Origin: Candidatus Thalassarchaeaceae archaeon
GTDB lineage: Archaea; Thermoplasmatota; Poseidoniia; Poseidoniales; Thalassarchaeaceae
Assembly (NCBI GenBank): GCA_029250605.1
Contig: JAQXEZ010000002.1
Coordinates: forward strand, 22,775 to 86,774
Reading direction: 5' to 3'
Length of the DNA: 64,000 bases
This document shows, piece by piece, positions 8,084-33,969 of the stretch. Each line of letters opens with the position of its first letter. Position 1 is the stretch's first letter. Made by a program: the position numbers and the translations under genes. The notes beneath the pieces are model-generated. The model made no database searches, had not been told where the DNA came from, and worked only from the letters and a program-made list of their open reading frames with translations.

Positions 8084-8084
8084 A

Positions 8085-8672: not shown

Positions 8673-8749
8673 CTAGCCGAATCGCTCGACTAGATTCATA
8701 TACGGGTCATCGGTGGCTCGCGGCGCACAAGAAGTGAGGTGGCGCAAAA

Positions 8750-9031: not shown

Positions 9032-9040
9032 GGTGAACTA

Positions 9041-9211
9041 TTGGCCGGAAAATTCCTGAGAGTGAGTTGCAAAGACTGCGGAAACGAAGCCACCCTCTTC
9101 GATAGGGCTTCGACTGCAGTGTCCTGTCCAATTTGCGGATCAACCCTTGCAGAACCAGCTGGCGGGCTTGCCAACCTCATCGGATGTACCGTTGTTGAGG
9201 TTCTGAACTAG
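9041..9211 (+). CDS. rps27e: 30S ribosomal protein S27e (TTG start; absent from ORF track because under 60 aa)
   Basis: Manual translation gives LAGKFLRVSCKDCGNEATLFDRASTAVSCPICGSTLAEPAGGLANLIGCTVVEVLN. This is the S27e C4 zinc finger (C.DC...C..CG) plus the AEPTGGKA-like motif. It sits exactly in the conserved position between L44e and aIF2alpha. Confidence 0.75.
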   Translation: MAGKFLRVSCKDCGNEATLFDRASTAVSCPICGSTLAEPAGGLANLIGCTVVEVLN

Positions 9212-9223
9212 AGGGGCTGCATC

Positions 9224-10012
9224 TTGGCGGATTTAGCGAATGACTGGCCTGAAGAAGGCGAGTTGGTCGTTTGCTCCGTGAAGAGCGTTAAAGAGAACGG
9301 AGCATATCTAAACCTAGATTCCTATCCAGAGAGGGAGGGTTTCGTATTCATTGGAGAGATCGCTACCGGATGGGTCAGGAATATCAGAGCCCATGTTAGA
9401 GAGGGCCAGAGAGTGGTGGCCAAGGTAATCGGGATAAAGAGAGAGAGGGACAGTGTAAACCTCTCAATAAAATCCGTTTCTGAGGAGCGAAGGAGGGATG
9501 CACTTCAGTCCTGGAAGAACGAGCAACGAGCATCTCAGATAATGAGGGTGGCCGCAGAAAGGATTGGTTGGGACGGAGCCAAGACGACTGCAGTCTCGGA
9601 GGAGATGAGGGAGGCGTTTGGCTCCCTTTATGGAGCTCTAGAGGAGTGTGCCATAACTGAGAGTGCTTTAGAGGAGTCTGGATTCGAGGGGGCTTGGATA
9701 GCAGTTGTAACAGAACTGGCAATCGAGAATATTGTTCCACCATTCGTGGAAATTAGGGGTTTGTTTGAGATCAAGGTATGGGGTCCCGAAGGAGTAGAGG
9801 CGATTAGTGGCGCCCTACAGGCTGCAGAGGATTGCGCGGATGGAGAAGATGAAGTCACCCTTACTTGCCATTATGATGGCGCGCCCAACTACAGGGTTGA
9901 TATCAAGGCACCAGATTACCCCTCGGCAGAGGCGGTGTGGGAAGCAGCCCAAGAGGCAGCGTCGAAGAAGATCGGGTCCGTAGAAGGATCGATAGCCATT
10001 GAAAGGCTCTGA
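9224..10012 (+). CDS. eif2a: translation initiation factor 2 alpha subunit (aIF2-alpha)
   Basis: N-terminal S1 domain (GELVVCSVKSVKENGAYLNL...EGFVFIGEI) followed by a helical and alpha/beta domain. The neighbourhood is conserved. The track start is TTG. Confidence 0.85.
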   Translation: MADLANDWPEEGELVVCSVKSVKENGAYLNLDSYPEREGFVFIGEIATGWVRNIRAHVREGQRVVAKVIGIKRERDSVNLSIKSVSEERRRDALQSWKNEQRASQIMRVAAERIGWDGAKTTAVSEEMREAFGSLYGALEECAITESALEESGFEGAWIAVVTELAIENIVPPFVEIRGLFEIKVWGPEGVEAISGALQAAEDCADGEDEVTLTCHYDGAPNYRVDIKAPDYPSAEAVWEAAQEAASKKIGSVEGSIAIERL

Positions 10013-10068
10013 ATGAACCAATATGGGAAGATACTTCATGAACCTCATCGAGGGGCTCGTCTTCATCC

Positions 10069-10281
10069 ATGGCTAGAACTAGGCTTCAACGCTGCACTAA
10101 ATGCAAGACATTTGGCCTTGGAGCGAAGTGCAAAGAGTGTGGCGGGAAAATGGAGTCAGCGACGGCTCTGAAGTTCTCCCCAGAAGATCCCCAGGGGGCT
10201 AGGCGTAGGAAAAGACAGGATGCGGGTAGCGAGAAATGGGTCAAATCCCTCCCAAGCCCCAGAAAGGGTGATGATTCGTGA
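10069..10281 (+). CDS. nop10: H/ACA ribonucleoprotein complex subunit Nop10
   Basis: N-terminal zinc ribbon C.KC....LG..C.ECGG followed by ...FSPEDP. Conserved position downstream of aIF2alpha. Confidence 0.75.
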   Translation: MARTRLQRCTKCKTFGLGAKCKECGGKMESATALKFSPEDPQGARRRKRQDAGSEKWVKSLPSPRKGDDS

Positions 10282-11042
10282 ATAGGACAAGAGTCCATTG
10301 GCTTGAGGGAGACAGCCTCCCTATGCACGCCATGGTGCTAGAAGCAGTTCCTGGAGTGGGCAACGTGGGAAAAATTATGGTTGACGGACTAATCGATAAG
10401 CACCCCTCAAGAACCATCGGATGGATTCTGCACCCGGACTTCCCTCCTCATGCGACGCTATCTGATGAGGGTTTGATTGGACCACCTAGATTGGATATTA
10501 TTGTGGTTATTCTCCCTAATGGCGAGAACGTTTGTATCATCACGGGAATCATGCAGCCCATGACTGCTCCCGGGCAGTTCGAGATCGCAGAGGCGATTCT
10601 TGGATTGGCAAGTGATTCTGAGGCGAGTCGTGTCCTTGTCCTGGCAGGATTGGCTGCGGAACCAGAATGCCGATCGATTTACGCAGTCTGCTCTGACAAA
10701 GTTTTCCGGAAGAACCTCGAGAAGGAGGACATTGTCGTAAGTAGGGACCAGCCAAAGGGCGGAATGATCGGAGTTGCCGGGATGGTACTATCGTTGTCCA
10801 CAACACTCGGGGTACCGGCCCTCGGAGTCATAGCTGAGACGGTCGGGGCCAGTTCCGATGTCCTCGCAGCGGACAGGATGGCCAATTGGATAGAGCAGGC
10901 CTTCGAGGTCCCACTGGATCTCGATCTTGACACGACTAAGGAGACTGCTGCCAAGCTGATGGAGAAGATTGGGGGCGATGGTTCTATTGAGGACTACCTT
11001 GCAATGGAGGAAACTGAGGCTTCATCTGACTTCTACGTCTGA
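10278..11042 (+). CDS. PAC2-family (proteasome assembly chaperone / COG1938-like) protein
   Basis: The Gly-rich N-terminus (EAVPGVGNVGKI) and size match the PAC2/COG1938 proteins that occupy this position in the archaeal L44e-S27e-aIF2alpha-Nop10 superoperon. Overlaps nop10 by 4 nt. Confidence 0.5.
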   Translation: MNRTRVHWLEGDSLPMHAMVLEAVPGVGNVGKIMVDGLIDKHPSRTIGWILHPDFPPHATLSDEGLIGPPRLDIIVVILPNGENVCIITGIMQPMTAPGQFEIAEAILGLASDSEASRVLVLAGLAAEPECRSIYAVCSDKVFRKNLEKEDIVVSRDQPKGGMIGVAGMVLSLSTTLGVPALGVIAETVGASSDVLAADRMANWIEQAFEVPLDLDLDTTKETAAKLMEKIGGDGSIEDYLAMEETEASSDFYV

Positions 11043-11047
11043 TCTAC

Positions 11048-12310
11048 TTACCTTCTTCGCCTTCTCTTGCTGTTCCCTCGCCCTCCGGATGAGGATTCCT
11101 CGACGGAAATTCGCCTGCCCTTGAATTCCGACTTGTTCATCGCCTTGATAGCGTCCTTGGCTTCCTTCTTGTCAGCGAATGTGATGAATGCGAATCCCCT
11201 CGGCTTCTTGGTTTCCTTATCCATTGCCATATGGACGTCGTTCAGTTTTCCATGTACGGAGAAGGCCTCCCTTAGATCGTCTTCCGTGGCATCGTAAGAC
11301 ACGCCGCCGATGAACAGTTTTACTCCAAACTCCTTCTGTGCCTTGCCTCTGGCTTTCTTCATGACCTCCCTTTCCTTAGCGAGATCGTCCTTGCTAGCCT
11401 TTCCAGACTCCACTCTGTCCATGCAGTCGCGGCATCTGAGGGGTTTTCCAGGAGTTGGTTTGAATGGGACCTTCGTCTGTGTTCCACAAAGGGTGCACTT
11501 TGCAGGGTGCATCTCCCTCTGTGGCCGCCCACCACCCCTGCCTCCTCTGGAAGATGGTGATCTCTTGGCTGATTCTGGAATCTCGTGAGACCATCCCCTC
11601 CTATGATCGGCTACTGGGGACAAGTATGGCCTTGCTCCGTCATGGCCCAACATGGACTCTGCTTCGCTGGACCAGCGCTCACCGGGGCGGTTTAACTTCT
11701 GGATATCTGAACCAGAGGGGATTTCGAAACCGTGTCCGAAGCCATTCGAGAGGGCCCTGAAGCCCCTGTAGTCGCAGCGAGGGCACTCGACGTTGAAGTC
11801 GGGGGTGATTTCACTTGGAAGCAAATCCTCCCCACAAGGCGGGCAAGCTGCGTAAAGAACACCCAATTTGGAATCCCCCTTTGTCGTGGCCTTCAGCATC
11901 GGCTCGACATTGATGATCTTGGCGCGAACGATGTCGCGCTTCCTCATCGTATCGCCCGCCGATGGGATGAAACGGTCCACTATTTCGGAGACGAAGACGT
12001 CTGCGAATAGCTTCAGAGCCGGGACGGCTCTGTGCCCGCCCTCGTTGGTCTCAATGTGTAAAACGCGGAGTTCTGCGGTCTTCTCGTTGAGGCGGTTCAC
12101 CTCTCCAATAATGACATCACCAATCTTTGGAGAATTTATCGGAGGTGCTGATGAATCTACAGAAATAACTCCAGAGTTGCTCACGATGTTACCAGAGAGT
12201 ACAGCCACGGGACCCCTATCAGTCATATGGAGGCCATGGCCCAATTCTTCTCCTGGACCAACCTCAACAGAAAATCCAGGGGTTACTTGGTCACCGACCG
12301 ATGCTGTCAT
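11048..12310 (-). CDS. csl4: exosome complex RNA-binding protein Csl4 fused to RGG box, zinc ribbon and C-terminal RRM domain
   Basis: The N-terminal ~185 aa has an S1 domain and the Csl4 Zn ribbon (CPPCG...CPRC). It is followed by an RGG linker (SSRGGRGGGRPQ) and a second Zn ribbon (CTLCG...CRDC). The C-terminus is an RRM with RNP2 (KLFIGGV) and RNP1 (RGFAFITF). The adjacent NPPW methyltransferase matches the known Csl4 neighbourhood. Confidence 0.7.
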   Translation of the reverse strand: MTASVGDQVTPGFSVEVGPGEELGHGLHMTDRGPVAVLSGNIVSNSGVISVDSSAPPINSPKIGDVIIGEVNRLNEKTAELRVLHIETNEGGHRAVPALKLFADVFVSEIVDRFIPSAGDTMRKRDIVRAKIINVEPMLKATTKGDSKLGVLYAACPPCGEDLLPSEITPDFNVECPRCDYRGFRALSNGFGHGFEIPSGSDIQKLNRPGERWSSEAESMLGHDGARPYLSPVADHRRGWSHEIPESAKRSPSSRGGRGGGRPQREMHPAKCTLCGTQTKVPFKPTPGKPLRCRDCMDRVESGKASKDDLAKEREVMKKARGKAQKEFGVKLFIGGVSYDATEDDLREAFSVHGKLNDVHMAMDKETKKPRGFAFITFADKKEAKDAIKAMNKSEFKGRRISVEESSSGGRGNSKRRRRR

Positions 12311-14126: not shown

Positions 14127-14726
14127 GTGCCTACTCGGCAATCCATGATCGATTGGGACTCAAACGAGTTTCTCCCAGTCGTCGATATGCCGGAGGAATA
14201 CACGGTCCTAGACCTCAGTCGGGGAGTCTGGAGTCAGCCTGATACTCCTTTCAGCGTCGGCAAGTACGACGAGTTTAGGCCCAACCTGTACAATACTGAT
14301 CTCTTTGGGGGAGAGAGGAACGTGCACATTGGGATTGACATCGGAGGGCCAGTTGGAACTCCGTGCATGGCATTCATGGACGGGGTTATTTCGCAGTTCG
14401 GTTACAACCCAGAACCCGGAGATTATGGTAACGTCATCATAACCAAGCACGAGATTAGCGGTATTCCAGTATGGGCCTTGTACGGGCACCTAAATGCGGC
14501 ATCGATAGAAGGGAAGAGCGTTGGAAATAGGGTCGATGCGGGAGAAGTGATTGCATGGTTCGGGGCATTCGAAGAGAATGGCGGGTGGGAGCCTCATCTG
14601 CACTTCCAACTATCTCTGATTGAGCCGGAGACTCATGACATGCCAGGAGTTGTGGCACCAGAGGATAGGGGTCAGGCCCTCAAGGACTATCCCGACCCAA
14701 GGCTTGTATTGGGACCAATCTACTAA
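14127..14726 (+). CDS. M23 family (LytM-like) zinc metallopeptidase, no signal peptide
   Basis: HxxxD (HIGIDIG) and HxH (HLHF) zinc-ligand motifs in M23 order. The start codon abuts the rmuC stop. Confidence 0.7.
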   Translation: MPTRQSMIDWDSNEFLPVVDMPEEYTVLDLSRGVWSQPDTPFSVGKYDEFRPNLYNTDLFGGERNVHIGIDIGGPVGTPCMAFMDGVISQFGYNPEPGDYGNVIITKHEISGIPVWALYGHLNAASIEGKSVGNRVDAGEVIAWFGAFEENGGWEPHLHFQLSLIEPETHDMPGVVAPEDRGQALKDYPDPRLVLGPIY

Positions 14727-15802
14727 ATTGATGTTAGATGCGCCTTCAATGACTCTATCGCAGGCATTGCAGACGGGTCCTCACCAGTGAGAACTGCTAG
14801 ACCTATTGACACCCAATCTGTAACGTGAGCAGCATATAGCAGCCTCTCCAGCAAGCTTTCCCCTTCGCACTCAATGACCCACGAGGGCGAGGATTCAATC
14901 TCTTCGAGCAGCCACTCCATTCTTGCACTTGTCCTCGGATGCAAATCTTCGCATGAGAATAGCAATAATGCACGATTTGACGCGGACTTTCCGGTCCATG
15001 CCACAATCTCGTTGTGATTCATCTCAGGAACTTCTGTGGCACCTGCGAACATCGCCGAATTCTCATTCAACTGGCAGGAGAAACGGTATGCTGCGGGTCC
15101 TAGGCAAGTTGGGGCGACGATCCCAATTTCACTCCCAACTATGGATCGTGACAGTGTAGCGGCCATCCCAGAGTTGGAGGACAAGTCCGAATCTGCGGAT
15201 ACTTGAGAGAGTCTGCCAAGAATATCGGATATCTCTTCTGGGCTTGGCCTTTGGAGAATCCCGAGTTCCCAGCACGCCGACAATTGGGTGCCGAAGATGT
15301 GCCCAAATGCCGAACGGGGCATTTGTCCGGGAGGGACATTTAGACACACTGAATCGTCGGAATCCGAGAGAATATCCTCTAATTCACCACCAGAGCATAT
15401 TCCGACAACGGTCCCGCCTGCTGATATTACCTCTCTGACGCCATCCAGCGTCTCCTCCGTGTTACCGGAATAAGAGGTCGCCATAACAAGCCACTCTGGA
15501 CCCCACCAACTAGGCACGCCATAGTCAGTCCAGACTACGAATGGCAGCCCTCCAGAATCATCTGAGAGGGCCTTCAAGAAAAGCCCGCCTGCCCCTGAAC
15601 CCCCCATTCCCAGGCAGAGGACTCCGTTCCAGTCGGAGTCTTCTACCATACCTAGGCCAGTGGACATCGAGGCCTGGAGATCATCTACGAACTTCCTAGT
15701 GAATCCTGCCATGTCCCGAGGGTCTAGTTCGGAAAGCAATTCTTCGAAATCGGGCTCGCTCATTTCCCCCCTCCTTTGCCGGAGACTGGCAGTGCCACCC
15801 AT
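14723..15802 (-). CDS. bifunctional phosphoglucose/phosphomannose isomerase (SIS domain)
   Basis: Two SIS-like halves (GMGGSGAGG...; SYSGNTEET) typical of archaeal PGI/PMI. The real start is probably an internal Met (MSEPDF). Confidence 0.7.
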   Translation of the reverse strand: MGGTASLRQRRGEMSEPDFEELLSELDPRDMAGFTRKFVDDLQASMSTGLGMVEDSDWNGVLCLGMGGSGAGGLFLKALSDDSGGLPFVVWTDYGVPSWWGPEWLVMATSYSGNTEETLDGVREVISAGGTVVGICSGGELEDILSDSDDSVCLNVPPGQMPRSAFGHIFGTQLSACWELGILQRPSPEEISDILGRLSQVSADSDLSSNSGMAATLSRSIVGSEIGIVAPTCLGPAAYRFSCQLNENSAMFAGATEVPEMNHNEIVAWTGKSASNRALLLFSCEDLHPRTSARMEWLLEEIESSPSWVIECEGESLLERLLYAAHVTDWVSIGLAVLTGEDPSAMPAIESLKAHLTSI

Positions 15803-16881
15803 CTCCCATCTATGAAGCCGATGCGCAATTCAACCGCCTCACCGTCATCGTCGTATGGGAGTCCAACGGTTGAAACCTTGTAGTCAGAAGGATCCATGAA
15901 TTCAGCAGCAGAACTGTCGCGATTGAGGACCTGGACGGTGCTCTGTTCGGCAAGCGCGCACACAACACTGGAAGACTCCATGTCTCTCCACGTCGCCCCG
16001 GACCTCTCAAATCGATCCACCTTCCTTAGAATTGGACCGTCCTTCTGCCAACTATCAACTATCCAAAGTGATTTCTTGAATCTGACCACGTCCCCGATAG
16101 AGTAAGCGGGCTTCCTGTAGCTGAGAGTTAGCCTCGTAACCTCGACCCCCTCATTGACCCCTACAACTGTTGAGCTCTCCTTGACGGATCCGCCGAACGA
16201 TCTGGTTAGTTTCCTCCCCCATGTTCTTGCAAGGCTCTTGGAGCCCAATTGGAGATCCCATCCACCTGTAACTGGACCTTCCTTTGAGACGAAGAACATG
16301 GGATTTGGCTCCATCGACTGGAGTAACTCGTCCAAGGTCGATCTGAGACTGGTTAGTTCTTCTTCGTTGAGTTTTCTCCCTGCTGACCTTAGTTGGACTG
16401 TTGCCTCGAAGTAGTCTCCATCCTTCCTCGTACAAGGAGTGCAGACCGCGTTGCTAGTCTGTAGCAGGGGCGAATGGGTGTCATGGAATTCGTAACCATC
16501 AATGGTTCCGGAGATCTCGACATACAACCTGTTTGTTCTCTGGTCTATTTCCTGGACTGAGAAGTCCACTGCAACCTTCTTGGCCCTCTCCTCAAGTACT
16601 AGGTTCTCCCTGATCCTAAGATCTGCTATTCCGTCTCTGTCCATAATGGACCAACCGCCCCTTATTTCGAATGACTCGCACTTTGCGCAGCGCCTCTGCT
16701 GAATTGTTTCTGGCATCTTCGAGAGGGTCGTCCTCTTCCTGAGGCAGGACTCGCATAGCCTGTCTGTGGATAATGGGGGATCCGCGCCGCAAGTGATGCA
16801 AAAGGCCCCTCCAGACATACGATTACCAGTGCTCCGCCCAGTCCGCCCCGTTAGAAGGCTTCCGAGAGCATCTGGAGTCAT
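15760..16881 (-). CDS. nmd3: NMD3-family 60S ribosomal subunit export/assembly protein homologue
   Basis: N-terminal Cys4 clusters (FCITCG...CESC; RCAKCESF) followed by NMD3 OB-like domains. The probable true start is MSGGAFCITCG. Confidence 0.7.
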   Translation of the reverse strand: MTPDALGSLLTGRTGRSTGNRMSGGAFCITCGADPPLSTDRLCESCLRKRTTLSKMPETIQQRRCAKCESFEIRGGWSIMDRDGIADLRIRENLVLEERAKKVAVDFSVQEIDQRTNRLYVEISGTIDGYEFHDTHSPLLQTSNAVCTPCTRKDGDYFEATVQLRSAGRKLNEEELTSLRSTLDELLQSMEPNPMFFVSKEGPVTGGWDLQLGSKSLARTWGRKLTRSFGGSVKESSTVVGVNEGVEVTRLTLSYRKPAYSIGDVVRFKKSLWIVDSWQKDGPILRKVDRFERSGATWRDMESSSVVCALAEQSTVQVLNRDSSAAEFMDPSDYKVSTVGLPYDDDGEAVELRIGFIDGRWVALPVSGKGGGK

Positions 16882-17014: not shown

Positions 17015-17800
17015 TCAATTCGCCCCCTCCTTGTCAATCTCCCTGTTCAATGACTCCAACACGGCCCTTAGGTTGTAGATCGAGTAGTTTAGCAAGACCA
17101 AGCCAATGAACAGGACCATGAATGAAATTGCACCGAAGCCCATGACCTGGAGGATCTCCGGATCGACCCCGGTCTCCTCTGACTCCCTAAGAATGACGCC
17201 TGGGTGCCGATTCCTCCAGATTGTTGTTGCAGCAGCGGTAATTGGAACAAGTATGAATCCGAACAAACCAACGGCTGCTAGTGTGTCCCTTGTTTCTTCC
17301 CCATCAGGCTGACTCCTTAGCGACATCACAAGGAACAATGCCACAGAAGTCAGAAGGGCGAATGTGTTCAACCTAACATCCCCCCAATCCCATGGAACGC
17401 CCCATTCAACGGAACCCCAAATAGGACCTGAAATCACCACTCCTAAACCAAAGAGAAGCCCTAGTTCAGAGCCTATTACAACCATGCTCCAGCCTCCCTC
17501 TGAGCGCTTAACATACCATGAAACGGCACCAAGGAATAGTAGGCAGAAGGACAAGAATGAGGACCATGCGAATGGAACATGCCAGTAGAGTATACGATAT
17601 GCCCCAGGTGCATTCCAAGAGTCAGGGTCGACCAAGGGGGCTTGGAAGAAACCGAGGAAGGCCGTGATTGCAGCGCATAACAGCCCCACTAAGGTAATGA
17701 TGACTGCTGAGTCTCTGAAATCACTCACAGGACTGCGAAAAACAACATAGTGATGAATGCTGTTGGTCAGTAATCTGGAATCAACACTGCTGAGAGCCAC
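17015..17800 (-). CDS. ccmC: cytochrome c-type biogenesis protein CcmC-like (heme exporter subunit C)
   Basis: Polytopic membrane protein with the Trp-rich WWD-type motif (WGSVEWGVPWDWGDVRL). Confidence 0.6.
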   Translation of the reverse strand: MALSSVDSRLLTNSIHHYVVFRSPVSDFRDSAVIITLVGLLCAAITAFLGFFQAPLVDPDSWNAPGAYRILYWHVPFAWSSFLSFCLLFLGAVSWYVKRSEGGWSMVVIGSELGLLFGLGVVISGPIWGSVEWGVPWDWGDVRLNTFALLTSVALFLVMSLRSQPDGEETRDTLAAVGLFGFILVPITAAATTIWRNRHPGVILRESEETGVDPEILQVMGFGAISFMVLFIGLVLLNYSIYNLRAVLESLNREIDKEGAN

Positions 17801-19200
17801 ACTAGGGCGGATAGGAGACTAGCAACGATACAAGTAATCAATGGATCGTGTATGGAGAGGCCCCACGTCATCCCATTATCAATGATAGAAGAAAGGGCAT
17901 CTGTCAACTCCAGGAAGGGCCAGACCATTACTACCAGCAGGAGCGGAGCAGGGGCAGCTGAAGACCTAGAAAGATCGGAAACCAATAGATGTAGGGCAGT
18001 GGATGCAATCGCCAAGTCCATCATGGCCAAGGCGGGCATCCACAACCACGTCAGCACCTCGGAGGAGACTTGGTCGTCAACGGAACCGGAAAGAACGAGC
18101 CAAGAAAGGTATGTTACTGGGATGGGCAGTAGAATCGATGCTCCGGAAATTGAGAATGCAGGTCGTGCCATCGGCCCCGATACAGCATCCCACCAGCGAC
18201 CGCAATCAGACTCAGAAAGTCTGGATACCAGTGCTGGTGATGAGATAGATGCGATAAAAGCCGGAGCGAGTACCAAAGCGGCTAGAAGTCGGCTATCATG
18301 CGACTGGAGGTCGTAATCCATCATCAAGGCGTAGGAGAGAAGAATGGCAACGATTGCCGGAGTTGCCCTCCCGACCGTTTCTATAGGATTCCGGAGCTCC
18401 ATTCTAATCGACCAACGAATTAGAGACGAGATCGCGCGTTGCTCGCTTGATTGGATTGGTTCGGGCAAATGAGAGGGTTCTCCTGATGATTCCCCCGCAG
18501 ATTCACTCAGAATCCTGTCTTCGATTGTTAGTATTCTATCTGCACATGACGAGAGGTCTTTGTCATGAGTCGCCACCAATATCCCATGGTTCCGGGAAGA
18601 TAGGGCCCTAATCCATCCCTTCAGTGTCTCCTTTGCGGAGTCGTCTAGACCTTCGGATGGTTCGTCTAGAAGGACTACTCTGGGAGTCTCGCTGAGTACT
18701 GCAGGGGCCAAACCGCACAATATGGATAGGCGACGCCTGAGCCCTCCGGAAAGGTTTGCGACGCGTTCTTCGGACCTATGGCGGAGACCCCAATGCCCCA
18801 ATAGATCCGCTATTTGCTCTTCATGAGAGTGAATTCCTGCGACAGAAAGGGATACTGCCAGCCGCTCTGAAACGGTCTCTTCTCCTGAGATTCCGCCCTT
18901 CTGAAGAGTCAGCCCCATAGGGGGAGGAGGGTTTCTGCGACCATCTGAGTCTCTAACCAATATCGATTCCCCCCTCTCGTGCCAGATTACTTCACCGGAC
19001 CTCAATGGCAAGATTCCAGCGAACGCCTCGATCAGGGTTGTCTTTCCGGACCCATTGTCCCCCATCACTGAAACTACTTCTCCGGCTCCTAGGTTGACAG
19101 ATGCCCCCTCCAGAACCTTGGATGGGCCTCTGTGTACTTCTATCCCCTTTACTTGGGCTAATGGGGATATGGGCATATTGGGTCGGTAGAGGACTGTCAT
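17767..19200 (-). CDS. ccmAB: heme-exporter ABC protein, CcmA ATPase fused to CcmB-like permease
   Basis: N-terminal Walker A (GDNGSGKTTL), ABC signature (LSGGLRRRL) and Walker B (LLDEPSEGLD). The C-terminal half has six predicted TM segments. Overlaps ccmC. Confidence 0.6.
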   Translation of the reverse strand: MTVLYRPNMPISPLAQVKGIEVHRGPSKVLEGASVNLGAGEVVSVMGDNGSGKTTLIEAFAGILPLRSGEVIWHERGESILVRDSDGRRNPPPPMGLTLQKGGISGEETVSERLAVSLSVAGIHSHEEQIADLLGHWGLRHRSEERVANLSGGLRRRLSILCGLAPAVLSETPRVVLLDEPSEGLDDSAKETLKGWIRALSSRNHGILVATHDKDLSSCADRILTIEDRILSESAGESSGEPSHLPEPIQSSEQRAISSLIRWSIRMELRNPIETVGRATPAIVAILLSYALMMDYDLQSHDSRLLAALVLAPAFIASISSPALVSRLSESDCGRWWDAVSGPMARPAFSISGASILLPIPVTYLSWLVLSGSVDDQVSSEVLTWLWMPALAMMDLAIASTALHLLVSDLSRSSAAPAPLLLVVMVWPFLELTDALSSIIDNGMTWGLSIHDPLITCIVASLLSALVWLSAVLIPDY

Positions 19201-19205
19201 ATTGA

Positions 19206-20300
19206 GTGTTCCATAACTACGAATCCCTCTTTAGAGCAATCATCTGGGGGCAAACAATGACCAGGGACACCGACTTTCTCTGGAGTCAGCTAGAGTCAAT
19301 TGACTTTCTCTGGATTGCGATTCTCTTTTTGGTCGCAATCGGACCGCTGGTCTACGCTGGCAGGAAAGGTGATAGTTTGGCGCTTGCAATGGTTCTTTCA
19401 CTACTCCTTGTCCATTTCGTCCAGTACTTCTTGTCGATTCTCCAGCACGAGTTGTTTGATTTCTTTCCTGTCGACATTTTCGGTTTGATCCCTGTTTTAT
19501 CCGGGGAACCTTCTCATTTCCACCGAATGTTCACTTCTGCATGGTTGCATGCCGACTTTATCCATGTTCTTGGGAACATCCTCGTAATAGCGCTGGCTGG
19601 AGTGCCGCTCGAGCAGAGATTGGGGGCAAAAAGATGGGTTGCTGTGTACTTCATAGGGTTCCTTGGTGGGAACATTGCATGGGTCTTGTCCCACCCAGAT
19701 TCATATTCCCCAGCAATTGGGGCTAGTGGTGCTGCATTCGGACTTCTAGGGGCTTACTTGGCCTGCTGGCCAGAGGACAAGATCGAGTTTCCCTTACTTT
19801 TCCTAATCAGGGCTTGGCCCGTGTGGCTAATTGCATTCATCCGACTGGGGCTCGAGATTTTCCATATGTACTCGATTCAAAGTGGCACGGAGGGAGAAAC
19901 CAACATAGCCCATATGGCACACGTAGGTGGATTCTTCCTAGCTTACCTTGTCGCGAGACCCATCGCAAAGGGGGCTCCGAGTCCGATTGGCGATATTGGT
20001 GCTTCAGGAAAAGCCTCTTCATTGACAGATGACATCAGAAAGCAGACCACTGCTAGGATGGGAGGCTTACAGAATGATCCTTGGGAATCAGCAGGAAAAA
20101 ACCTGGAAGGAAGGGCTGCAAGAATTCTTATCAAATTGAGGGAAGAGGGAGACGAGTTGGAGACTAGAAGGGCTTGGCTAGAAGAGTTGGCTGAACACAC
20201 AATTTGCCCTGTTTGTGATGGAGAAATAGTCGCTATCGATGACAGGGGGGTATGCAGATTGAATTGTTCCCTGTCGCCGAGCCACATCAGGTGGCCATAA
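19206..20300 (+). CDS. rhomboid family intramembrane serine protease with C-terminal cytoplasmic zinc-ribbon tail
   Basis: GxSG catalytic motif (IGASGAAFGLLGAY) and catalytic His (AHVGGFFLAYL) within a six/seven-TM core. C-terminal CPVCDG...CRLNC. Confidence 0.75.
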   Translation: MFHNYESLFRAIIWGQTMTRDTDFLWSQLESIDFLWIAILFLVAIGPLVYAGRKGDSLALAMVLSLLLVHFVQYFLSILQHELFDFFPVDIFGLIPVLSGEPSHFHRMFTSAWLHADFIHVLGNILVIALAGVPLEQRLGAKRWVAVYFIGFLGGNIAWVLSHPDSYSPAIGASGAAFGLLGAYLACWPEDKIEFPLLFLIRAWPVWLIAFIRLGLEIFHMYSIQSGTEGETNIAHMAHVGGFFLAYLVARPIAKGAPSPIGDIGASGKASSLTDDIRKQTTARMGGLQNDPWESAGKNLEGRAARILIKLREEGDELETRRAWLEELAEHTICPVCDGEIVAIDDRGVCRLNCSLSPSHIRWP

Positions 20301-20368
20301 GTGGCAATCTAGCAAGCACTTACAGGTTGGAGTTATACAGGTCTTGACTTTGGCTCTCTTAGAGAGCC

Positions 20369-23300
20369 ATGGTCAGAGGTCCAGGAAAGTTCTTCCCATT
20401 CGCCATCGCGATTTTGGTTTTCTTGCTTGATGTGCCCATAGGAGCAGCGCATGTCCCTGATGTAGAGAATTCTGATTCTACAGTTTTTTTTGAGGGTGAA
20501 ACTCCAGCCATTCCATCATTGATTTGCGGGGAAGAAGAATGCCAGAAAGAACTCAATCCGACCCATACTCCTCTCAATTCTAGTCCTCCAGCAATGGAAT
20601 TCGGATGGTGGAATAGTTTCTGGTCCGACTCCGACTCCAATGGTTTTGATGACCGACTCCAACTTATCGTGGCAGGAGAAAGGGAGTCTGTCTCAGTAAC
20701 TTCAATCGTTGGTGATGATGGCAGAGGAACTGTTGCTATCATTGTCCACTATGCATGGCATCCAGGAGTTCTGGACATCGACTCGTTAAAGGGAGTGATC
20801 GAGCAACACGGCTGGGAAAACGAAGGCTCCTGGTTCATGGTAATGGATCATCTAGATGCCATAGTCCTGGATCACGTCCCAGTGAGTTCTCTGATTGATA
20901 TTTGGAGTCTAGATGGAGTCGTCCTTGTCGAGGAGCAGAGCGTTATTGTGCCTTATCTGGACAAGGCGACGAGGGGTTCCAAGGTGAGGACCTCGGGGGT
21001 TTATGACGAGACTTTGAGGGGGCTTGGATACCATGGTTCTGGTAAAGTAATCGCTATTCTTGATACTGGAGTCGACAATGAGCACTTCTCACTTGACGAT
21101 TTCTCGGACGATAACAAGGACAACACAAAGGACCCCGATGACATAGAGGACCCCAAATGGGTCGGGGGATGCGATGCAACAGGAGTGGGGCAGTCAGGAT
21201 GCAACGATGAGGACCCCGATGATGGTGACGGTCATGGAACCCACGTGGCGGGAATTGCCCTCGGTACGGGAGACTCTAGTCGAGTCAATCAAGGATACTC
21301 TCCCGGCTCTTATCTAGTCGACGTGAAAGTCATGGAGGACTATGGTGGGGGGAACTCCCAGTCTATTCTGGCCGGCATCCAGTGGGCCATTAACAACAAA
21401 GACACTGATTGGGGCAATAATGCATCAAGCAGGGGCATCCACGTACTTTCTATGTCCTTCGGCAGAGCCAGCTCTGCTGTTGGAGACAACAACGAAGATG
21501 GGTCATCGGCGGAGGCGAATCTAGTTAATCAGGCCTCAGAGAATGGTTTAGTCTGTGTAGCTGCAATTGGAAACGATGGAGCGAACAATGTGAACTCCGT
21601 CGGTGCGGCGGATACCTCAATCACAGTTGGGTGGCTGGATGACAAGAATACCATCGATCGTAGTGATGACTCAATTAGCTCAAACTCCAACTATGGCCCG
21701 AGGACCGATGATGGAGACGGAGACTCGTGGGATGAAATGAAACCCTGGGTTGTGGCCCCTGGGTCGAATATCAACTCCGCACAGCATGCCGAATCATCCG
21801 GAATCATTCCTGGATCAGAAGTAAACAGAGCGAGTGACGACTACACTCAGTTATCGGGATCTAGCATGTCGACTCCAGCGGTGGCTGGGCTCGTGGCGAT
21901 TATGCTAGAAATTGGCGAAATGCGCAAGATGCCATTCATGGAGGAGGATGAGCCTGGAATAGAGAGGTATGAGGCGATCAGAAGTTTCCTCGCAGGTGGC
22001 TCAGAGTTCAGGAATGAATGGTCTGTGGATGAGACCTGGCAAGATAACAACTGGAACACGAGATATGGTTTCGGGATTATTGACGGGGGTGAAATCGCTA
22101 GTGAGATGTTCGATTACACAGGTGGCGGTGGCGGTGGAGGGAATCAGACCTCAGGCCCGGGATCAAACCAAGAGGGTCATTGGGTTGAGATTGAAAGTCC
22201 TTCAGCATACGCTTGGTTGGTAGAAGGAAGAGGATACAACCTAAGGGGGCACATCAACGAGCATGGCGAGGACAATGGGACTATCGAGGAAGTTGTCGTA
22301 AAGGTCGAGATGGAATTCAGGGAATCATCTGACACGCCCAAACAGAGATCAATTCTGGTAAACTGGTCGAATCCTACTGGAATAACCAATTGGACGGAAC
22401 CCTTCGAAGTTCCCGACCTCCCAGATGAATACACCGATGTCTCAGTCACTGGAATGGTTGCGGCGCGGAATGACATAGGAAGATGGAGCAATACGACTGA
22501 GTACTTCTTTCCAGTAGGCAGGGTAAACATCACACTAGAAGGCCCCAGTGGACAAGGTGACTTGGATGGAAACGTAGAGGTTAATGGCCAGTTTCAGTCA
22601 ATTGGAAATGCTACAATTCAATGGAGGCTGGACAGCGAAGAATGGCAGAATGGGCCCCATTACCACGACGGAGAGTGGACCATTGAGGACCAAGAGGGGA
22701 TGAGGCATGCAACTTCTCGGTACAAGGGCGATGGCAGCATCGATCCAGACTACCAGGGTCATGCATATTGTGTACACATGTTCAAAGCGGCTCAGAATTC
22801 TGGGAATAGCGTCGATTGCAAAGAGGATGACGATGGATGGACTCAATGGAGTTTCAACTGGGATACAACCCAGCACAAGGACGAAGAGTACAGGATTTCA
22901 GTGAGGGTGATTAGTGCTGTTGGAGTGACTTCTGAGCAAATCCGAAGAGTTGTCAGAGTTGACAACATTGACCCTATGCCAGACTTGGTTTTCGTTAGTA
23001 AATCGATTTCGGTTCAGGAATTTGGCATTCCGATGCAGGAATCATATGTTAATACATTCTTGGAAGTCAGGGCTACTATTAGGAATTCGGGGGATCAAGC
23101 CGCGACTGATGTGGGAATCATTCTAGAAGAATGGGGGGAGAGGCGAGACGAGTATGTGATTTCAAACATAGATACCGGCCAGTTCGTTGAAGTTGTACTG
23201 TACTGGAACCCTATGGACTCAGGCGATGCTCTGCTATCCATTTCAATCGACCCTCTGAATTCAATTCAGGAGTTAGACGACAATAACAACGAGCTTGTAG

Positions 23301-25339
23301 GAACTTTCTCTGTTGTCCCGAGGCCTCCAGGGGTCGATCTTGCAATTAGGGCAGGGTCAATTTCAGCTCTGGCAGTCTCTAGCCCGATTCCCAGGCCAGA
23401 CGAGTCGGCAGTCGTCCAAGCAAGGGTAGACAATCTGGGGTCGCAGGATGCTGTCGGAGTCTCTGGGACTCTGGAAATGATGACTGAGCGGGGTTGGGAA
23501 TTTATTGGGAATTCAACTGCTGCATTGGTTCTGGGCGGATCTCATTCGATAATCTCTTTTCCCTTCGCTCCAAACATTTCCGGGCCACTTGAAGTGAGAG
23601 TGAGCGTCATCTTGGATAGCGGAGGAGACAATGACTGGTCCAACAATGTGCGGATCAAGACCCTGCTTGTTGACAGTACGACTTTGTCGGGACCGAGGGA
23701 TGCTGAACTGAATCCCGGAGAGAGTCCCATTGCCATCGTAAGTCTAGATAGCGAAGAGGGTGATGATCTACTAATTGGGGAGAAGGATGGGGCCCTGTTA
23801 ATGTACAAACTAACTGAAACTAAATCGTTAATTGAATGCAATAACGTGATTGAGGAACGATGGTCTGGCGATATTTCAATTATCGGTACGGATGAAGGTT
23901 TTGCCCATATTGTGTGGACAAGGCGTTACATGGGGCCAAACTGGTTTCTAATGCAGACCCTAAGTTACTCCACTATCGACTCAAGTTGTAGAATTGCCCC
24001 CCCTCAGGACTTACTCCCGGGGATTCCACTGTCCGATGGAAAGTATTGGGGCATTGACATGGACATAAGGGACTCTGAAATTCTTGTTTCTGGCTATCAC
24101 AGGGATGTTTTCAGTGGGGGAAGTCTCGAAGACGAGACGAACATCTTCCTAATTCATTCAGAAAGCCCCCTCTCCTCGGACGACTGGAATCTGCAGACTG
24201 GAATAATCAAAGACATCGACGCCGACCCTTACCAGATTGATCCAATATCAGTCGAATTCGGGCATGATCAGGCGCATATCCTCTATCAAACGATTAGGAA
24301 CGACACTACTGGCAAGGACCGCCTTGGAGTCTGGTACTCACATGGAATGATTGGCCAGGAGACGTGGGCATATCGAAAGGCAGTCGGTGACGAGTCGGCC
24401 ATCCCCATGCTGACTGTGATTGAAGATGATGATGGCGATACTTTGGTTTCGCTTTGGAGAGAAGGGGATCCTCAAGACTCCGAACTGGTCGTATTCGTGA
24501 CTGATTCAAATTTCATGACTAATGGCCAAATGGAAACGCGGATCCCGGCAAGAGGAATGGCGGGAATAGGCGTTGTAGAGTCAGAGAGGGGGATTCAGGT
24601 ACTATTCGATCGGGTTGGGGCTAGTGGCCCTCAAGTAGAGTACGGGTTGATTGATGTTGATAGTGGTTGGATAGGCCTCTCAGACACTTTGGTCAGAGGG
24701 CAATACAAATCGATGGATAGGTCCGAAGATTCTGGAGAAACGATGATGGTCGTCTCATCATCCGACGGTTGGCAAATAAGGACCCTGATAGATGATGGCT
24801 CTTCTAGACGCGGCGGGGGCCTATCTGACCAACTAAGATCATCCCTCGGCTTGGATCAAGAGAGTTTCGAAATCCTAGTGATTGGTGTCGCATTGGCCGT
24901 TCTGATACTTGGAATGGTAACCTTAGTCGGTCTTTCCTCACAGGGAGTCAGGTGGGTCGGAAGGAGAGGTTCGATTGACAAGGATGCTAGCGTGGTGATG
25001 GAGGATGACGTAGTGGACCTAGTGGGAGGAACCGATCTCTCGATTGGCTCAGACGAGATCGAAATTGTCCAAGATGATTCTAATGATGATTTTGCCGTAA
25101 GTGGACGCGATAGCAGGAGAGCGAGAAGGGATAAGAGGAATTCCGAAGAAGATGGCTTGCTAGACACAGCGGATTCTGGAACTATTGAGCCCGTATTGGA
25201 AATCCAGATGCCAGATTACTCCATGGCACCACCTATTTCTGGCCAGGTAACATGTCCTGGGTGCAAGAGCAGGTTCGCAACGGAACCGGGAATCATGTCA
25301 ATGAAATGCCCAGTTTGTGGATTGAAAATTGATCTCTGA
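20369..25339 (+). CDS. giant subtilisin-like serine protease (peptidase S8), secreted and membrane-anchored, with cytoplasmic zinc-ribbon tail
   Basis: Signal peptide, then the S8 triad in order: D (AILDTGVD), H (HGTHVAGIA), S (GSSMSTPAVAGLVA). This is followed by about 1000 aa of beta-rich adhesion-like repeats, a TM helix (ILVIGVALAVLILGMVTLVGL), an acidic tail and a terminal CPGC...CPVCG. Confidence 0.8.
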   Translation: MVRGPGKFFPFAIAILVFLLDVPIGAAHVPDVENSDSTVFFEGETPAIPSLICGEEECQKELNPTHTPLNSSPPAMEFGWWNSFWSDSDSNGFDDRLQLIVAGERESVSVTSIVGDDGRGTVAIIVHYAWHPGVLDIDSLKGVIEQHGWENEGSWFMVMDHLDAIVLDHVPVSSLIDIWSLDGVVLVEEQSVIVPYLDKATRGSKVRTSGVYDETLRGLGYHGSGKVIAILDTGVDNEHFSLDDFSDDNKDNTKDPDDIEDPKWVGGCDATGVGQSGCNDEDPDDGDGHGTHVAGIALGTGDSSRVNQGYSPGSYLVDVKVMEDYGGGNSQSILAGIQWAINNKDTDWGNNASSRGIHVLSMSFGRASSAVGDNNEDGSSAEANLVNQASENGLVCVAAIGNDGANNVNSVGAADTSITVGWLDDKNTIDRSDDSISSNSNYGPRTDDGDGDSWDEMKPWVVAPGSNINSAQHAESSGIIPGSEVNRASDDYTQLSGSSMSTPAVAGLVAIMLEIGEMRKMPFMEEDEPGIERYEAIRSFLAGGSEFRNEWSVDETWQDNNWNTRYGFGIIDGGEIASEMFDYTGGGGGGGNQTSGPGSNQEGHWVEIESPSAYAWLVEGRGYNLRGHINEHGEDNGTIEEVVVKVEMEFRESSDTPKQRSILVNWSNPTGITNWTEPFEVPDLPDEYTDVSVTGMVAARNDIGRWSNTTEYFFPVGRVNITLEGPSGQGDLDGNVEVNGQFQSIGNATIQWRLDSEEWQNGPHYHDGEWTIEDQEGMRHATSRYKGDGSIDPDYQGHAYCVHMFKAAQNSGNSVDCKEDDDGWTQWSFNWDTTQHKDEEYRISVRVISAVGVTSEQIRRVVRVDNIDPMPDLVFVSKSISVQEFGIPMQESYVNTFLEVRATIRNSGDQAATDVGIILEEWGERRDEYVISNIDTGQFVEVVLYWNPMDSGDALLSISIDPLNSIQELDDNNNELVGTFSVVPRPPGVDLAIRAGSISALAVSSPIPRPDESAVVQARVDNLGSQDAVGVSGTLEMMTERGWEFIGNSTAALVLGGSHSIISFPFAPNISGPLEVRVSVILDSGGDNDWSNNVRIKTLLVDSTTLSGPRDAELNPGESPIAIVSLDSEEGDDLLIGEKDGALLMYKLTETKSLIECNNVIEERWSGDISIIGTDEGFAHIVWTRRYMGPNWFLMQTLSYSTIDSSCRIAPPQDLLPGIPLSDGKYWGIDMDIRDSEILVSGYHRDVFSGGSLEDETNIFLIHSESPLSSDDWNLQTGIIKDIDADPYQIDPISVEFGHDQAHILYQTIRNDTTGKDRLGVWYSHGMIGQETWAYRKAVGDESAIPMLTVIEDDDGDTLVSLWREGDPQDSELVVFVTDSNFMTNGQMETRIPARGMAGIGVVESERGIQVLFDRVGASGPQVEYGLIDVDSGWIGLSDTLVRGQYKSMDRSEDSGETMMVVSSSDGWQIRTLIDDGSSRRGGGLSDQLRSSLGLDQESFEILVIGVALAVLILGMVTLVGLSSQGVRWVGRRGSIDKDASVVMEDDVVDLVGGTDLSIGSDEIEIVQDDSNDDFAVSGRDSRRARRDKRNSEEDGLLDTADSGTIEPVLEIQMPDYSMAPPISGQVTCPGCKSRFATEPGIMSMKCPVCGLKIDL

Positions 25340-25348
25340 GGTTAGGGA

Positions 25349-25978
25349 ATGCCCGTAATTCTACTCGTTTCTGCCTCCGAAAGGAGAAGGGCAATTATGG
25401 CAGATTTCTCTGAAAAAGATGGTATAGAGGTGCGATTCAGCGTATTGAAGGAGCCCGAGCCCGAGCCTTTGACTAATCTTGAGGTTCATTTGCAAGTCGA
25501 ATCATCCTGCATGCATAAAGCGAGATCTGCTGTCTTGGAGCTTGGTTATGGTGAAAACTCAGATGTAGAAATGATAGTGGTTTCTGACACGCTGGTAGAG
25601 GATCCTGATGATAGTCGGGTCGCATTGGGCAAGCCAGAGGACAAGGTTAGTGCAGCTTCCACCCTGATCAGACTCTCTGGAAGAAGGCACAAAGTTTGGT
25701 CTTCGACGGCAATCGTCACTAGAAATGGGACTGGTTTGGAAGTTGGTGCAGGTTGGAGAGCGGAGATCTGGACTGATTTCTCAATAGTGGAATTTGATGA
25801 AATTGGGGTGGATGGGATGGAGGATTTGATTGGTAGTGGATCTTGGTTTGGAAAGGCTGGCGGGTATGATCTAGCCGGGAAGGCTGGTTCTTTCTCAAGG
25901 GTAATCGAAGGGGAGGATGTGACTGTTCTCGGTTTCTCATCCTGTGCATTCGAAGAAATTGGGGGAATACTCCTCTAG
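25349..25978 (+). CDS. maf: Maf-like nucleoside triphosphate pyrophosphatase
   Basis: N-terminal LVSASERRRAIM (SxSPRRR-like). Central LSGRRHKVWSSTAIV and C-terminal GKAGGYDLAGKAGSF...IEGEDVTVLG fit the Maf family. Confidence 0.6.
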   Translation: MPVILLVSASERRRAIMADFSEKDGIEVRFSVLKEPEPEPLTNLEVHLQVESSCMHKARSAVLELGYGENSDVEMIVVSDTLVEDPDDSRVALGKPEDKVSAASTLIRLSGRRHKVWSSTAIVTRNGTGLEVGAGWRAEIWTDFSIVEFDEIGVDGMEDLIGSGSWFGKAGGYDLAGKAGSFSRVIEGEDVTVLGFSSCAFEEIGGILL

Positions 25979-26472
25979 ACGAAGGTGACGCCACCGAACT
26001 TCAAGACGAAATCGCGTTGGATCTCGTCGAACCAGTCAAGCATTGACGAGGCGAAGCAGACTTTGAAGACCTCATCATCGTGCAGCAAGTCGTCTTGGAT
26101 GCCTTGTAGGGTTCCCGGAGCCGCTCCACAGGAAACACATGCCCCGTCCAGATCGATGACTAGTGATAGTGCCCTATTCCCGTCACTTCTAACCTCAATT
26201 TCTCCTCTGGAAACGACCAGGGCCCCCCCATGCCCCTCCAGTGCCGCCCTAACAGGGCCAAGTCTTGCCATCAGCGCCGGGACCAATGAATTGTCTTCAG
26301 ACTCAAATAATTCAAGAAGCGACAACGAAAGAAGTCTAGAAGTTTCGATTGGGTCATTTCTTTCTGATATCCGACGTTCTGCCTCGTCCTGGATGGCCTC
26401 GCTAATCTGAGACCTATACTTGTCCTCTAGTTCATCTGGGGCCCCAGTATCGTCATCTCCATTATTCATCAA
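25975..26472 (-). CDS. NifU/Nfu-like Fe-S cluster scaffold domain protein
   Basis: C-terminal Nfu motif LDGACVSCGAAPGTLQGIQD (CxxC). Adjacent to sufCBD. Confidence 0.55.
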   Translation of the reverse strand: MMNNGDDDTGAPDELEDKYRSQISEAIQDEAERRISERNDPIETSRLLSLSLLELFESEDNSLVPALMARLGPVRAALEGHGGALVVSRGEIEVRSDGNRALSLVIDLDGACVSCGAAPGTLQGIQDDLLHDDEVFKVCFASSMLDWFDEIQRDFVLKFGGVTFV

Positions 26473-32963: not shown

Positions 32964-33914
32964 CTAACGATGGGAGTCCTTGAAGTTGGGCGTTTCCAGA
33001 TCTTTCTCCTTGGGGGTTATTCGGAATAAGAAAAATGCCGAAGCAATAGTTACTACAGATATCGCCATCAATGTGAACAAATGTGAGCTCCCATCAGCAC
33101 CCAATTTCTCTTCTGGGACTGTGAAATTGACCAAGTACATCTGCGTCCAGTTCTTCCCAGTAATCCAGAAACTACCAGAATTCCGATCAAATGCTATGCC
33201 GTTCAATACCTCTTCATTGCTATTTCCCTGAATGGAAGTGACGGCCAATGGGGATGAGAAAAAGTCCACCTTACCCGAAGCAGACGAGATTCTAAGGATT
33301 GTCTCCTCCATCCAAATGTTTGCATATATTTTGTCATCTACACATTCCAATTCATTTAGGTTTGAAACAGGAACGCCATCCCAAGTTACCTGTGTGGTGA
33401 AATCTATTTCAAAGCTATCTGGATCCCTGAATGAAAGCTCAGATGTCCCATTGGATGTAACAATGTGCTCCCCATTGTAGCATATCCCCCAACCCTCGCC
33501 TTCGAAACTGAAGTTTCCAATTATACTAAAATTTGAGATGTGAAATTCCAATGCCACTCCTGCCCTCCAAGTCAGCATAATGATTGACTGGCCCTTTACG
33601 GTAATCCCTTCTCCGAAGTAAGAGTCGTCAATCTTAGTCTGTCTGATAATCTCCCCATTTTGTGAGTCAATCTCGCTAATTCTCGAATGGCCATAAAGGC
33701 CCGAACTCTCGAAAATTGAGTTTTCCAGTACTTCCAGCCCTTGTGTGAACGAAGATGAGTCGTGAGGCAGTGTTCGCAATATCTCAACATCCCTCTCTTC
33801 GGCCGTATGATTGCCCTCCTCGGCCATTGACATCTGTGAAAGGAGTATGAGGAGCATTGCGATGGGAACGATTGATGGCCCCGTCCCCCTGCCCATGTAC
33901 GAACGATGCTCCAT
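32964..33914 (-). CDS. glutaminyl-peptide cyclotransferase (plant/bacterial beta-propeller type), extracytoplasmic, membrane anchored
   Basis: Signal peptide; QC family motifs HDSSSFTQGL, ESSGLYGHS, FGEGIT, LTW; C-terminal TM helix. Confidence 0.6.
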   Translation of the reverse strand: MEHRSYMGRGTGPSIVPIAMLLILLSQMSMAEEGNHTAEERDVEILRTLPHDSSSFTQGLEVLENSIFESSGLYGHSRISEIDSQNGEIIRQTKIDDSYFGEGITVKGQSIIMLTWRAGVALEFHISNFSIIGNFSFEGEGWGICYNGEHIVTSNGTSELSFRDPDSFEIDFTTQVTWDGVPVSNLNELECVDDKIYANIWMEETILRISSASGKVDFFSSPLAVTSIQGNSNEEVLNGIAFDRNSGSFWITGKNWTQMYLVNFTVPEEKLGADGSSHLFTLMAISVVTIASAFFLFRITPKEKDLETPNFKDSHR

Positions 33915-33969
33915 CGATGTTAAAATACGTCCTCGAGCAGTTTGGAGCAGATTGGTAAACGAGGTGCTA

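Follow-up and report, generated by a model that had tools for sequence, protein, structure and literature searches.

A rhomboid intramembrane serine protease and a 1656-residue subtilase of family S8 are encoded side by side in a 64-kb stretch of archaeal DNA (64,000 nucleotides of contig JAQXEZ010000002.1; referred to below as the window). Homologues that carry names are assigned to Candidatus Thalassarchaeaceae, Poseidoniales or 'Marine Group II', and the window can therefore be placed in a marine group IIb (MGIIb) archaeon (Poseidoniales, Thalassarchaeaceae). The two open reading frames, at 19206..20300 (+) and 20369..25339 (+), are adjacent and co-oriented, as a first-pass annotation of the window had described, and both genes are real and intact. 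We read them, with confidence that is about evenly balanced, as two core, order-wide membrane proteases of the Poseidoniales that are neighbours in a frozen gene block, where each would carry its own lineage-specific cytoplasmic zinc module. The descriptive account of both proteases is secure; the functional link between them is not.

A predicted seven-helix rhomboid

The rhomboid gene and its core features are as follows.

19257..20300 (+): gene for the rhomboid intramembrane serine protease, with probable start M18 (Pfam, homologue lengths, AlphaFold2)
19515..19958 (+): rhomboid catalytic core, residues 104-251 (Pfam)
19725..19727 (+): catalytic Ser174 in the GASG motif, invariant in both alignments
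19920..19922 (+): catalytic His239, invariant in both alignments

The longest reading frame opens with a GTG codon at 19206 and encodes 364 residues. Most of its homologues have 345-347 residues and start at the counterpart of M18; the true start is therefore probably M18, at 19257. The Pfam Rhomboid family (PF01694) matches residues 104-251 with an E-value of 9e-27 and 94.4 bits, against a cut-off of 22.6. Residues S174 and H239, together with H120 and N124 of the HxxxN motif in transmembrane (TM) helix 2, are all invariant in two alignments of 24 and 51 homologues at 57-90% identity. The AlphaFold2 model, calculated from the 51-sequence alignment with a predicted local distance difference test (pLDDT) score of 81, contains seven long helices at residues 14-37, 41-61, 101-122, 124-145, 156-170, 189-210 and 216-237 (347-residue numbering). 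The protein is predicted from this model to have seven TM helices, one extra N-terminal helix (TM0) and a six-TM core. Lysine and arginine cluster in the TM0-TM1, TM2-TM3 and TM4-TM5 loops and after TM6, and are almost absent from the TM3-TM4 and TM5-TM6 loops; this alternation fits a seven-TM protein with its N-terminus outside and its C-terminus inside. The six-helix rhomboid core has an N-in/C-in topology, established for GlpG, which together with the loop charges places the C-terminal tail in the cytoplasm. These features describe a putative, catalytically competent intramembrane protease of 1+6 TM architecture.

A putative C-terminal zinc domain on the rhomboid

Beyond TM6 the rhomboid continues into a domain with four probable metal ligands.

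20022..20297 (+): predicted cytoplasmic C-terminal domain of the rhomboid, residues 273-364 (conservation, AlphaFold2)
20205 (C334), 20214 (C337), 20265 (C354) and 20283 (H360) (+): probable zinc ligands of the rhomboid tail (conservation)

The tail runs through a DPW motif, two long helices (LREEGDELETRRAWLEELAE), a CPxC motif, a beta-hairpin zinc knuckle, a cysteine, five residues, a histidine and a terminal WP. Residues C334, P335, C337, C354, H360, W363 and P364 are invariant in both the 24- and the 51-homologue alignment. A Cys4 ribbon had been proposed here at first pass; the zinc-knuckle motif is indeed conserved, but it is not of the Cys4 type, since C350 is replaced by F, S or Y in other genomes where it is not C, and the fourth ligand is probably H360. 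As read from the alignments, the motif is CPxC-x16-C-x5-H..WP-end. Distant rhomboids with 44-49% identity keep this layout, one lineage having a cysteine for the histidine. Modeled alone, the tail of about 92 residues folds with a pLDDT of 88.5 and a predicted template modeling (pTM) score of 0.75 into a short N-terminal helix, a helical turn at DPW, the two long helices and a beta hairpin.

No significant match to the tail was found in Pfam, NCBIfam, PDB sequences or by Foldseek against the PDB; among PDB sequences there was nothing with E<1.7, and Foldseek returned nothing with E<0.8. The best Pfam match was to Rad50_zn_hook (PF04423), with E=0.023 and 14.9 bits, below the cut-off of 24.3. 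Identity as a Rad50 zinc hook was rejected on this sub-cut-off score, on the four conserved ligands in one chain and on the beta hairpin that follows CPxC. A database search with the tail alone returned only fragments of Poseidoniales rhomboids. Apparent stand-alone tail proteins (70-185 residues, some on very long contigs) were set aside as artefacts, the inspected copy, from locus L085, lying in a frameshift-ridden assembly. On that 1.1-Mb long-read contig all genes of the block described below, the rhomboid and S8 genes included, are split into short open reading frames (5381..12162), and the assembly is the origin of a protein database entry for an apparent 'stand-alone' rhomboid tail of 86 residues.

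Haloarchaeal rhomboids with an N-terminal AN1 zinc finger have been described (PMC4343526), and the cytosolic domain of Bacillus subtilis YqgP binds zinc or manganese and promotes or tunes cleavage (PMC7231995). The earlier view that zinc ribbons are unexpected on the cytoplasmic side of extracytoplasmic proteases was, for the rhomboid, overstated in the light of these two precedents. Like Haloferax volcanii RhoII (HVO_0727), the protein described here is an archaeal six-TM rhomboid core fused to a cytoplasmic zinc-binding domain, in this case a predicted one. Unlike RhoII, it has an extra N-terminal TM helix, and its zinc domain is C-terminal, a helical bundle with a CCCH knuckle ending in WP, in which Pfam finds no zf-AN1 match at E<=10. 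YqgP (GluP), in which a cytosolic extramembrane metal domain tunes cleavage, offers a model for a possible role of the tail, although the two are unrelated in sequence and fold, the YqgP domain lies at the N-terminus, and MgtE, its substrate, is a polytopic protein whose gene is not a neighbor. By analogy with the RhoII AN1 finger and the YqgP metal-binding domain, the helical and zinc-knuckle domain would most likely serve as a cytoplasmic regulatory or adaptor domain. Compact, confidently folded and without detectable relatives, it is a small target for structural and biochemical study.

The part of the subtilase predicted to be exported

The gene downstream of the rhomboid encodes a large protein with an N-terminal export signal and a catalytic domain well ahead of its anchor.

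20369..25339 (+): gene for a type I membrane-anchored S8 subtilase of 1656 residues (Pfam; full-length orthologues)
20369..20449 (+): signal-peptide-like N-terminus, residues 1-27, hydrophobic core 8-26 (hydrophobicity)
21035..21940 (+): S8 catalytic domain, residues 223-524 (Pfam)
21062 (D232), 21233 (H289), 21572 (N402) and 21863 (S499) (+): S8 active-site codons, invariant
23024..23296 (+): CARDB domain, residues 886-976 (Pfam, E=2e-13)

Full-length orthologues of S8 span identities from 97% down to 43%, and an N-terminal hydrophobic segment is present in most of those inspected. Peptidase_S8 (PF00082) matches residues 223-524 with E=1e-35 and 123.8 bits, against a cut-off of 21.8. The intact Asp/His/Ser triad reported at first pass is borne out, with D232, H289 and S499, as well as the oxyanion residue N402, invariant in 109/109 distinct relatives. 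The nearest solved relative is the Thermococcus subtilisin-like protease 3afg, to which only residues 180-514, the catalytic domain, align. A further claim, that about 1000 residues consist of adhesion-like beta repeats, finds no counterpart in our searches: one CARDB domain is recognized, no Pfam family matches the remaining ectodomain (about 525-885 and 977-1466, some 900 residues), and self-BLAST detects no internal repeat.

In its intact triad and large C-terminal extension, the protein resembles other anchored subtilases (the Tk-SP catalytic domain of 3afg; furin and S1P), and it shares with furin and S1P, which are eukaryotic type I S8 enzymes, a type I anchor and a cytoplasmic tail. The enzyme would leave the cytoplasm by way of its signal peptide and remain at the cell surface, tethered by its one C-terminal TM helix. 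Held there, it would degrade external protein and would be the 'extracellular S8' reported for all marine group II (MGII) genomes, a peptidase that is encoded by all MGII metagenome-assembled genomes (PMC6864105).

Anchor, cytoplasmic tail and terminal ribbon of S8

Three conserved segments make up the C-terminal end of the subtilase.

24767..24928 (+): juxtamembrane motif (GWQIR..DD...R..LGLD...F) and single TM helix (about residues 1500-1520) of S8 (conservation)
24929..25252 (+): S8 cytoplasmic tail ahead of the ribbon (conserved motifs)
25253..25336 (+): predicted C-terminal C4 zinc ribbon of S8 with C1629, C1632, C1647 and C1650 (consensus C..C.sRF....g....kCPvC..ri.l-end)

The TM helix itself is predicted near residues 1502-1520. 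Positions W2, R5, D10, G28, L29, F34, G40 and L48 (A2 numbering) of the juxtamembrane and TM segment are invariant, as are the glycine within the TM helix and the GWQIR..DD and LGLD...F motifs just outside the membrane. Across 100 orthologues the 15 residues after the TM helix contain on average 4.46 lysines plus arginines, as against 1.4 before it, and the acidic residues that flank the helix show the opposite pattern. By these positive-inside statistics S8 is a type I protein with a cytoplasmic tail. The topology analysis of the two proteins, by charge distribution around the S8 anchor and by loop charges in the rhomboid, thus agrees with the first-pass annotation in predicting that both tails are cytoplasmic.

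The S8 tail comprises about 135 residues and is strongly acidic, with a net charge of -14. A basic stop-transfer patch (RW..RR), an acidic segment (V.LEDDVVD...D...vE.v) and a second basic patch (RRxRRxxR) precede the ribbon, and the terminal CPGC-x14-CPVC (CxxC-x14-CPxC) is kept in 119/120 orthologues, the exception being a protein that ends early, without its last ~50 residues. The ribbon is also kept in distant full-length lineages in which S8 is only 33-38% identical overall, and these distant members retain the TM helix and the basic, acidic and basic stretches as well. The possibility had been raised that the motif was a chance arrangement of cysteines, absent from orthologues; conservation on this scale shows the S8 ribbon to be real, and the features of the rhomboid tail are likewise conserved. 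Tandem proline-rich repeats (LPPPP, GELPPLPAP) lie between the basic patch and the ribbon in L081, L083, L084, L089, P0264, P0275 and P0311 and are not present in MGIIb S8 tails; in the distant proteins that have them they could be docking sites for a cytoplasmic partner.

Against curated zinc-ribbon families the S8 ribbon scores below threshold, the best being the FGT1 ribbon with 25.4 bits against a cut-off of 27, and no DNA-binding family in Pfam or NCBIfam matches it above threshold. Searched in Pfam, NCBIfam and PDB sequences, the tail yields generic matches at most, all of them below threshold. Its CxxC-x14-CPxC spacing and beta-hairpin form are like those of generic two-knuckle ribbons (Zn_ribbon_4/MJ0042-type, FGT1 ribbon, IBR). 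Such generic ribbons often flank TM segments through low-complexity linkers; that of S8 differs from them in scoring 21-25 bits where gathering thresholds are 27-30, and in lying C-terminal to a type I anchor, not N-terminal. We know of no prokaryotic S8 family with a terminal cytoplasmic zinc ribbon. The ribbon would most likely provide a small handle, at the inner membrane face, for protein binding or clustering.

Two features of the pair appear to be new, in that they are undescribed in the families and literature searched: a rhomboid of 1+6 TM architecture with a C-terminal helical CCCH domain that finishes in WP, and a type I subtilase with a C4 ribbon at the end of its cytoplasmic tail. 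Rhomboids with cytoplasmic zinc domains and extracellular S8 peptidases of MGII are already known.

The two tails are not the same module

Both tails had initially been described as CPxC ribbons of a like kind. When their profiles were aligned with each other, only ten columns matched, around one CPxC knuckle, with a probability of 62%. Since the alignment is limited to this knuckle, the tails are not homologous and do not represent the same module; the common 'CPxC ribbon' is, as far as the profiles tell, a superficial resemblance.

The S8 tail was also considered, and rejected, as a sorting tag shared among surface proteins. A profile of the juxtamembrane segment, TM helix and tail, searched against 1.84 billion representative proteins, matched only this S8 family (fragments and full-length proteins) and, weakly, some unrelated multi-ribbon proteins. 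The window encodes a second giant type I surface protein (33811..37923, +; 1370 residues), with several PKD domains, a hydrophobic segment at about 64-90 and a C-terminal TM anchor, and its cytoplasmic tail of 65 residues has neither cysteines nor a ribbon. The only other CxxC...CxxC proteins in the window are soluble NMD3 and an RRM/treble-clef protein. NCBIfam sorting-signal models (GlyGly-CTERM, PGF-CTERM and others) gave no match at E<=10 in the last 217 residues of S8.

The tails might nevertheless bind each other, or a common cytoplasmic partner, and so join the rhomboid and S8 into a single complex, for example through a metal site shared by two CPxC knuckles as in the Rad50 hook. Both proteins terminate right after their CPxC-containing module, the weak Rad50_zn_hook match of the rhomboid tail would fit such a site, and the tails carry complementary conserved charges, EEGDELE in the rhomboid and RRxRRxxR in S8. 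That Pfam match is below its cut-off, however, and four conserved ligands are already present within each tail. The rhomboid tail folds confidently as a monomer in AlphaFold2, the tails are not homologous, and the RRxRR patch is absent from some lineages that still have an adjacent rhomboid. On balance we consider binding between the tails, or to a shared partner, improbable.

A conserved element between the two genes

One further feature lies between the rhomboid stop codon and the S8 start.

20325..20368 (+): conserved intergenic element upstream of S8, consisting of a box, a 13-nt spacer and a palindrome

The promoter-like box GGTTnnnnTTATAC occupies 20325..20338 and is followed, after the 13-nt spacer, by the palindrome GGCTCTCTTAGAGAGCC at 20352..20368, which has arms GGCTCTCT-N-AGAGAGCC and abuts the S8 ATG. 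In most loci 68 nt separate the rhomboid gene from that of S8, and the element is found at the equivalent position in L001-L084, L087 and L089, with a palindrome of 17-18 nt that abuts or overlaps the start codon. Some lineages have symmetric variants of the palindrome (GGCTCTGC..GCAGAGCC and GGCTCTAC..GTAGAGCC), and distant lineages have different hairpins at the equivalent position. Folded as RNA, the window palindrome has an energy of -20.7 kcal/mol (z=-4.8) with the AUG within the helix; covariation in the alignment of the start-codon hairpin was not above that of shuffled controls, and Rfam had no match in 19000..26000. The palindrome might serve either as an operator that spans the transcription start or as a hairpin acting in translation.

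In locus L087, where the rhomboid is not upstream of S8, the TTATAC box is retained. As the box stays with S8 when the upstream rhomboid is absent, it belongs to S8, and this suggests, at the level of sequence, that S8 has its own promoter. A scan for sigma-70 promoters and terminators gave no excess of sites, the sigma-70 model being uninformative for an archaeal host. In L044, L063, L066, L070, L071 and L074, where the spacer is 103-132 nt long, an extra GC-rich hairpin (GGTGCCG...CGGCACC) lies between the rhomboid stop and the S8 box; this hairpin is a possible terminator-like element of the rhomboid gene.

If the palindrome is an operator, it bears on a model of regulated intramembrane proteolysis, in which cleavage of S8 would free the zinc-ribbon tail to act on transcription or another target and so couple extracellular proteolysis to gene expression. 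The model draws on this conserved palindrome over the predicted S8 start region and on the tail itself, whose three conserved motifs and ribbon exceed what a simple anchor needs. It is, however, purely inferential; the ribbon has no above-threshold match to DNA-binding families, and the strong negative charge of the tail also counts against it. We regard this signaling role as very improbable, and even pooled with the tail-binding and shared-partner models it remains unlikely.

Gene order and the case for a possible protease-substrate pair

In all genome loci retrieved through the rhomboid (80/80), S8 comes directly after it in the same orientation, and the block of ccmC, abc, rhomboid, S8, maf, nifU-like and sufC genes is collinear in all 80 genomes. 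On metagenome contigs from distant lineages that also carry the pair, PGI, NMD3, CcmC and the ABC gene are retained upstream and are as conserved as the pair. Since unrelated neighbors are equally conserved and the gene order is frozen, adjacency carries little specific information, and by itself it is no demonstration of a functional link between the rhomboid and S8. The sole synteny break seen, in L087/L088 (L087 1..11252), leaves S8 without a rhomboid upstream: CrcB, a metallo-beta-lactamase-fold protein, LemA and a 281-residue protein take that place, and maf, nifU-like and sufC are kept downstream. The 281-residue protein has no Pfam match and no rhomboid motifs, and from its sequence looks like an alpha/beta hydrolase. 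The S8 tail of these two loci retains the ribbon and is missing the RRxRR patch.

Several observations weigh against our reading of two independent neighbors and favor instead a one-to-one pair of rhomboid and substrate, comparable to the rhombosortase system, in which the rhomboid would cut the S8 anchor within or just outside its TM helix. Such a cut would shed the 1500-residue ectodomain or clear the anchored enzyme, and recognition of the S8 tail, or gating on it, would fall to the rhomboid's zinc domain. The rhomboid is immediately upstream of S8 in 5/6 distant lineages as well, where the rhomboids are 44-49% and the S8 proteins 33-38% identical; the genes overlap by 10 nt in L081, and the pair stays adjacent where the downstream genes are rearranged and glmS, a KaiC-like gene and others have been inserted. 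S8 belongs to the class of protein that rhomboids cut, crossing the membrane once in type I orientation, with an invariant glycine in its TM helix and a conserved juxtamembrane LGLD...F. Both zinc tails are confined to the Poseidoniales. There is also a precedent, as rhombosortase genes adjoin that of their target when the target is single, the two being consecutive (PMC3237569), and one such target, VesB, is a serine protease like S8 (PMC6219818).

The parallel with rhombosortase and GlyGly-CTERM (RrtA and VesB of Vibrio cholerae; TIGR03902) extends to the layout of the neighbor, a secreted protein with a signal peptide and one C-terminal TM helix, but it does not hold in other respects. The rhomboid scores 37.5 bits against the TIGR03902 cut-off of 84. 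S8 has no match to the model of the Gly-Gly/SGGS motif, or to any other sorting signal, at its C-terminus, and its TM helix is followed by a zinc-ribbon tail of 135 residues, not by a few terminal basic residues. The host is an archaeon without an outer membrane or type II secretion system, unlike Vibrio. With baseline synteny so high, adjacency is weak evidence for a substrate pair; moreover, a promoter-like box belongs to S8 itself, and the only break in synteny splits the two genes. We therefore regard cleavage of S8 by the rhomboid, which the first-pass annotation had raised as a way of releasing the subtilase, as plausible but less likely than not. The suggestion from the first-pass annotation, that the two tails imply a shared partner or coordinated regulation, is weakened by the lack of homology between the tails, by the box that belongs to S8 and by the frozen block that the pair shares with unrelated genes.

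The genes next to the pair on the other side belong to other functions. Within 17015..19200 (-) and 14723..16881 (-), a CcmC-like heme exporter gene and a gene for a 477-residue ABC ATPase fused to a membrane domain are divergent from the rhomboid, and further out are NMD3 and a bacterial-type PGI. A 420-residue protein encoded at 11048..12310 (-) contains an RRM_1 domain (E=5e-21), a treble-clef zinc finger and another CxxC...CxxC pair; among archaea, proteins with an RRM are uncommon. At 39757..44455 (+), bacterial-type DNA gyrase genes gyrB and gyrA stand side by side.

Implications for marine group II archaea

To our knowledge, the natural substrates of prokaryotic rhomboids, and above all of archaeal ones, are almost unknown. 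S8 is a concrete candidate substrate, as a conserved neighbor with ideal topology that can be tested in a heterologous host. In its fullest form this would be a one-to-one system in which the zinc domain of the rhomboid reads the ribbon tail of S8, and cleavage both sheds the cell's main extracellular protease and frees a zinc-ribbon peptide as an intracellular signal. We give that combination little chance of being right; if true, it would be the first case in planktonic archaea of a defined natural rhomboid substrate and of a defined circuit of regulated intramembrane proteolysis. The uncultured archaea of marine group II rank with the most abundant in the plankton and are thought to feed on high-molecular-weight protein. 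S8 is a universal, very large, cell-anchored protease of this group, and how it is anchored, released and controlled bears on the processing of both dissolved and particulate protein.

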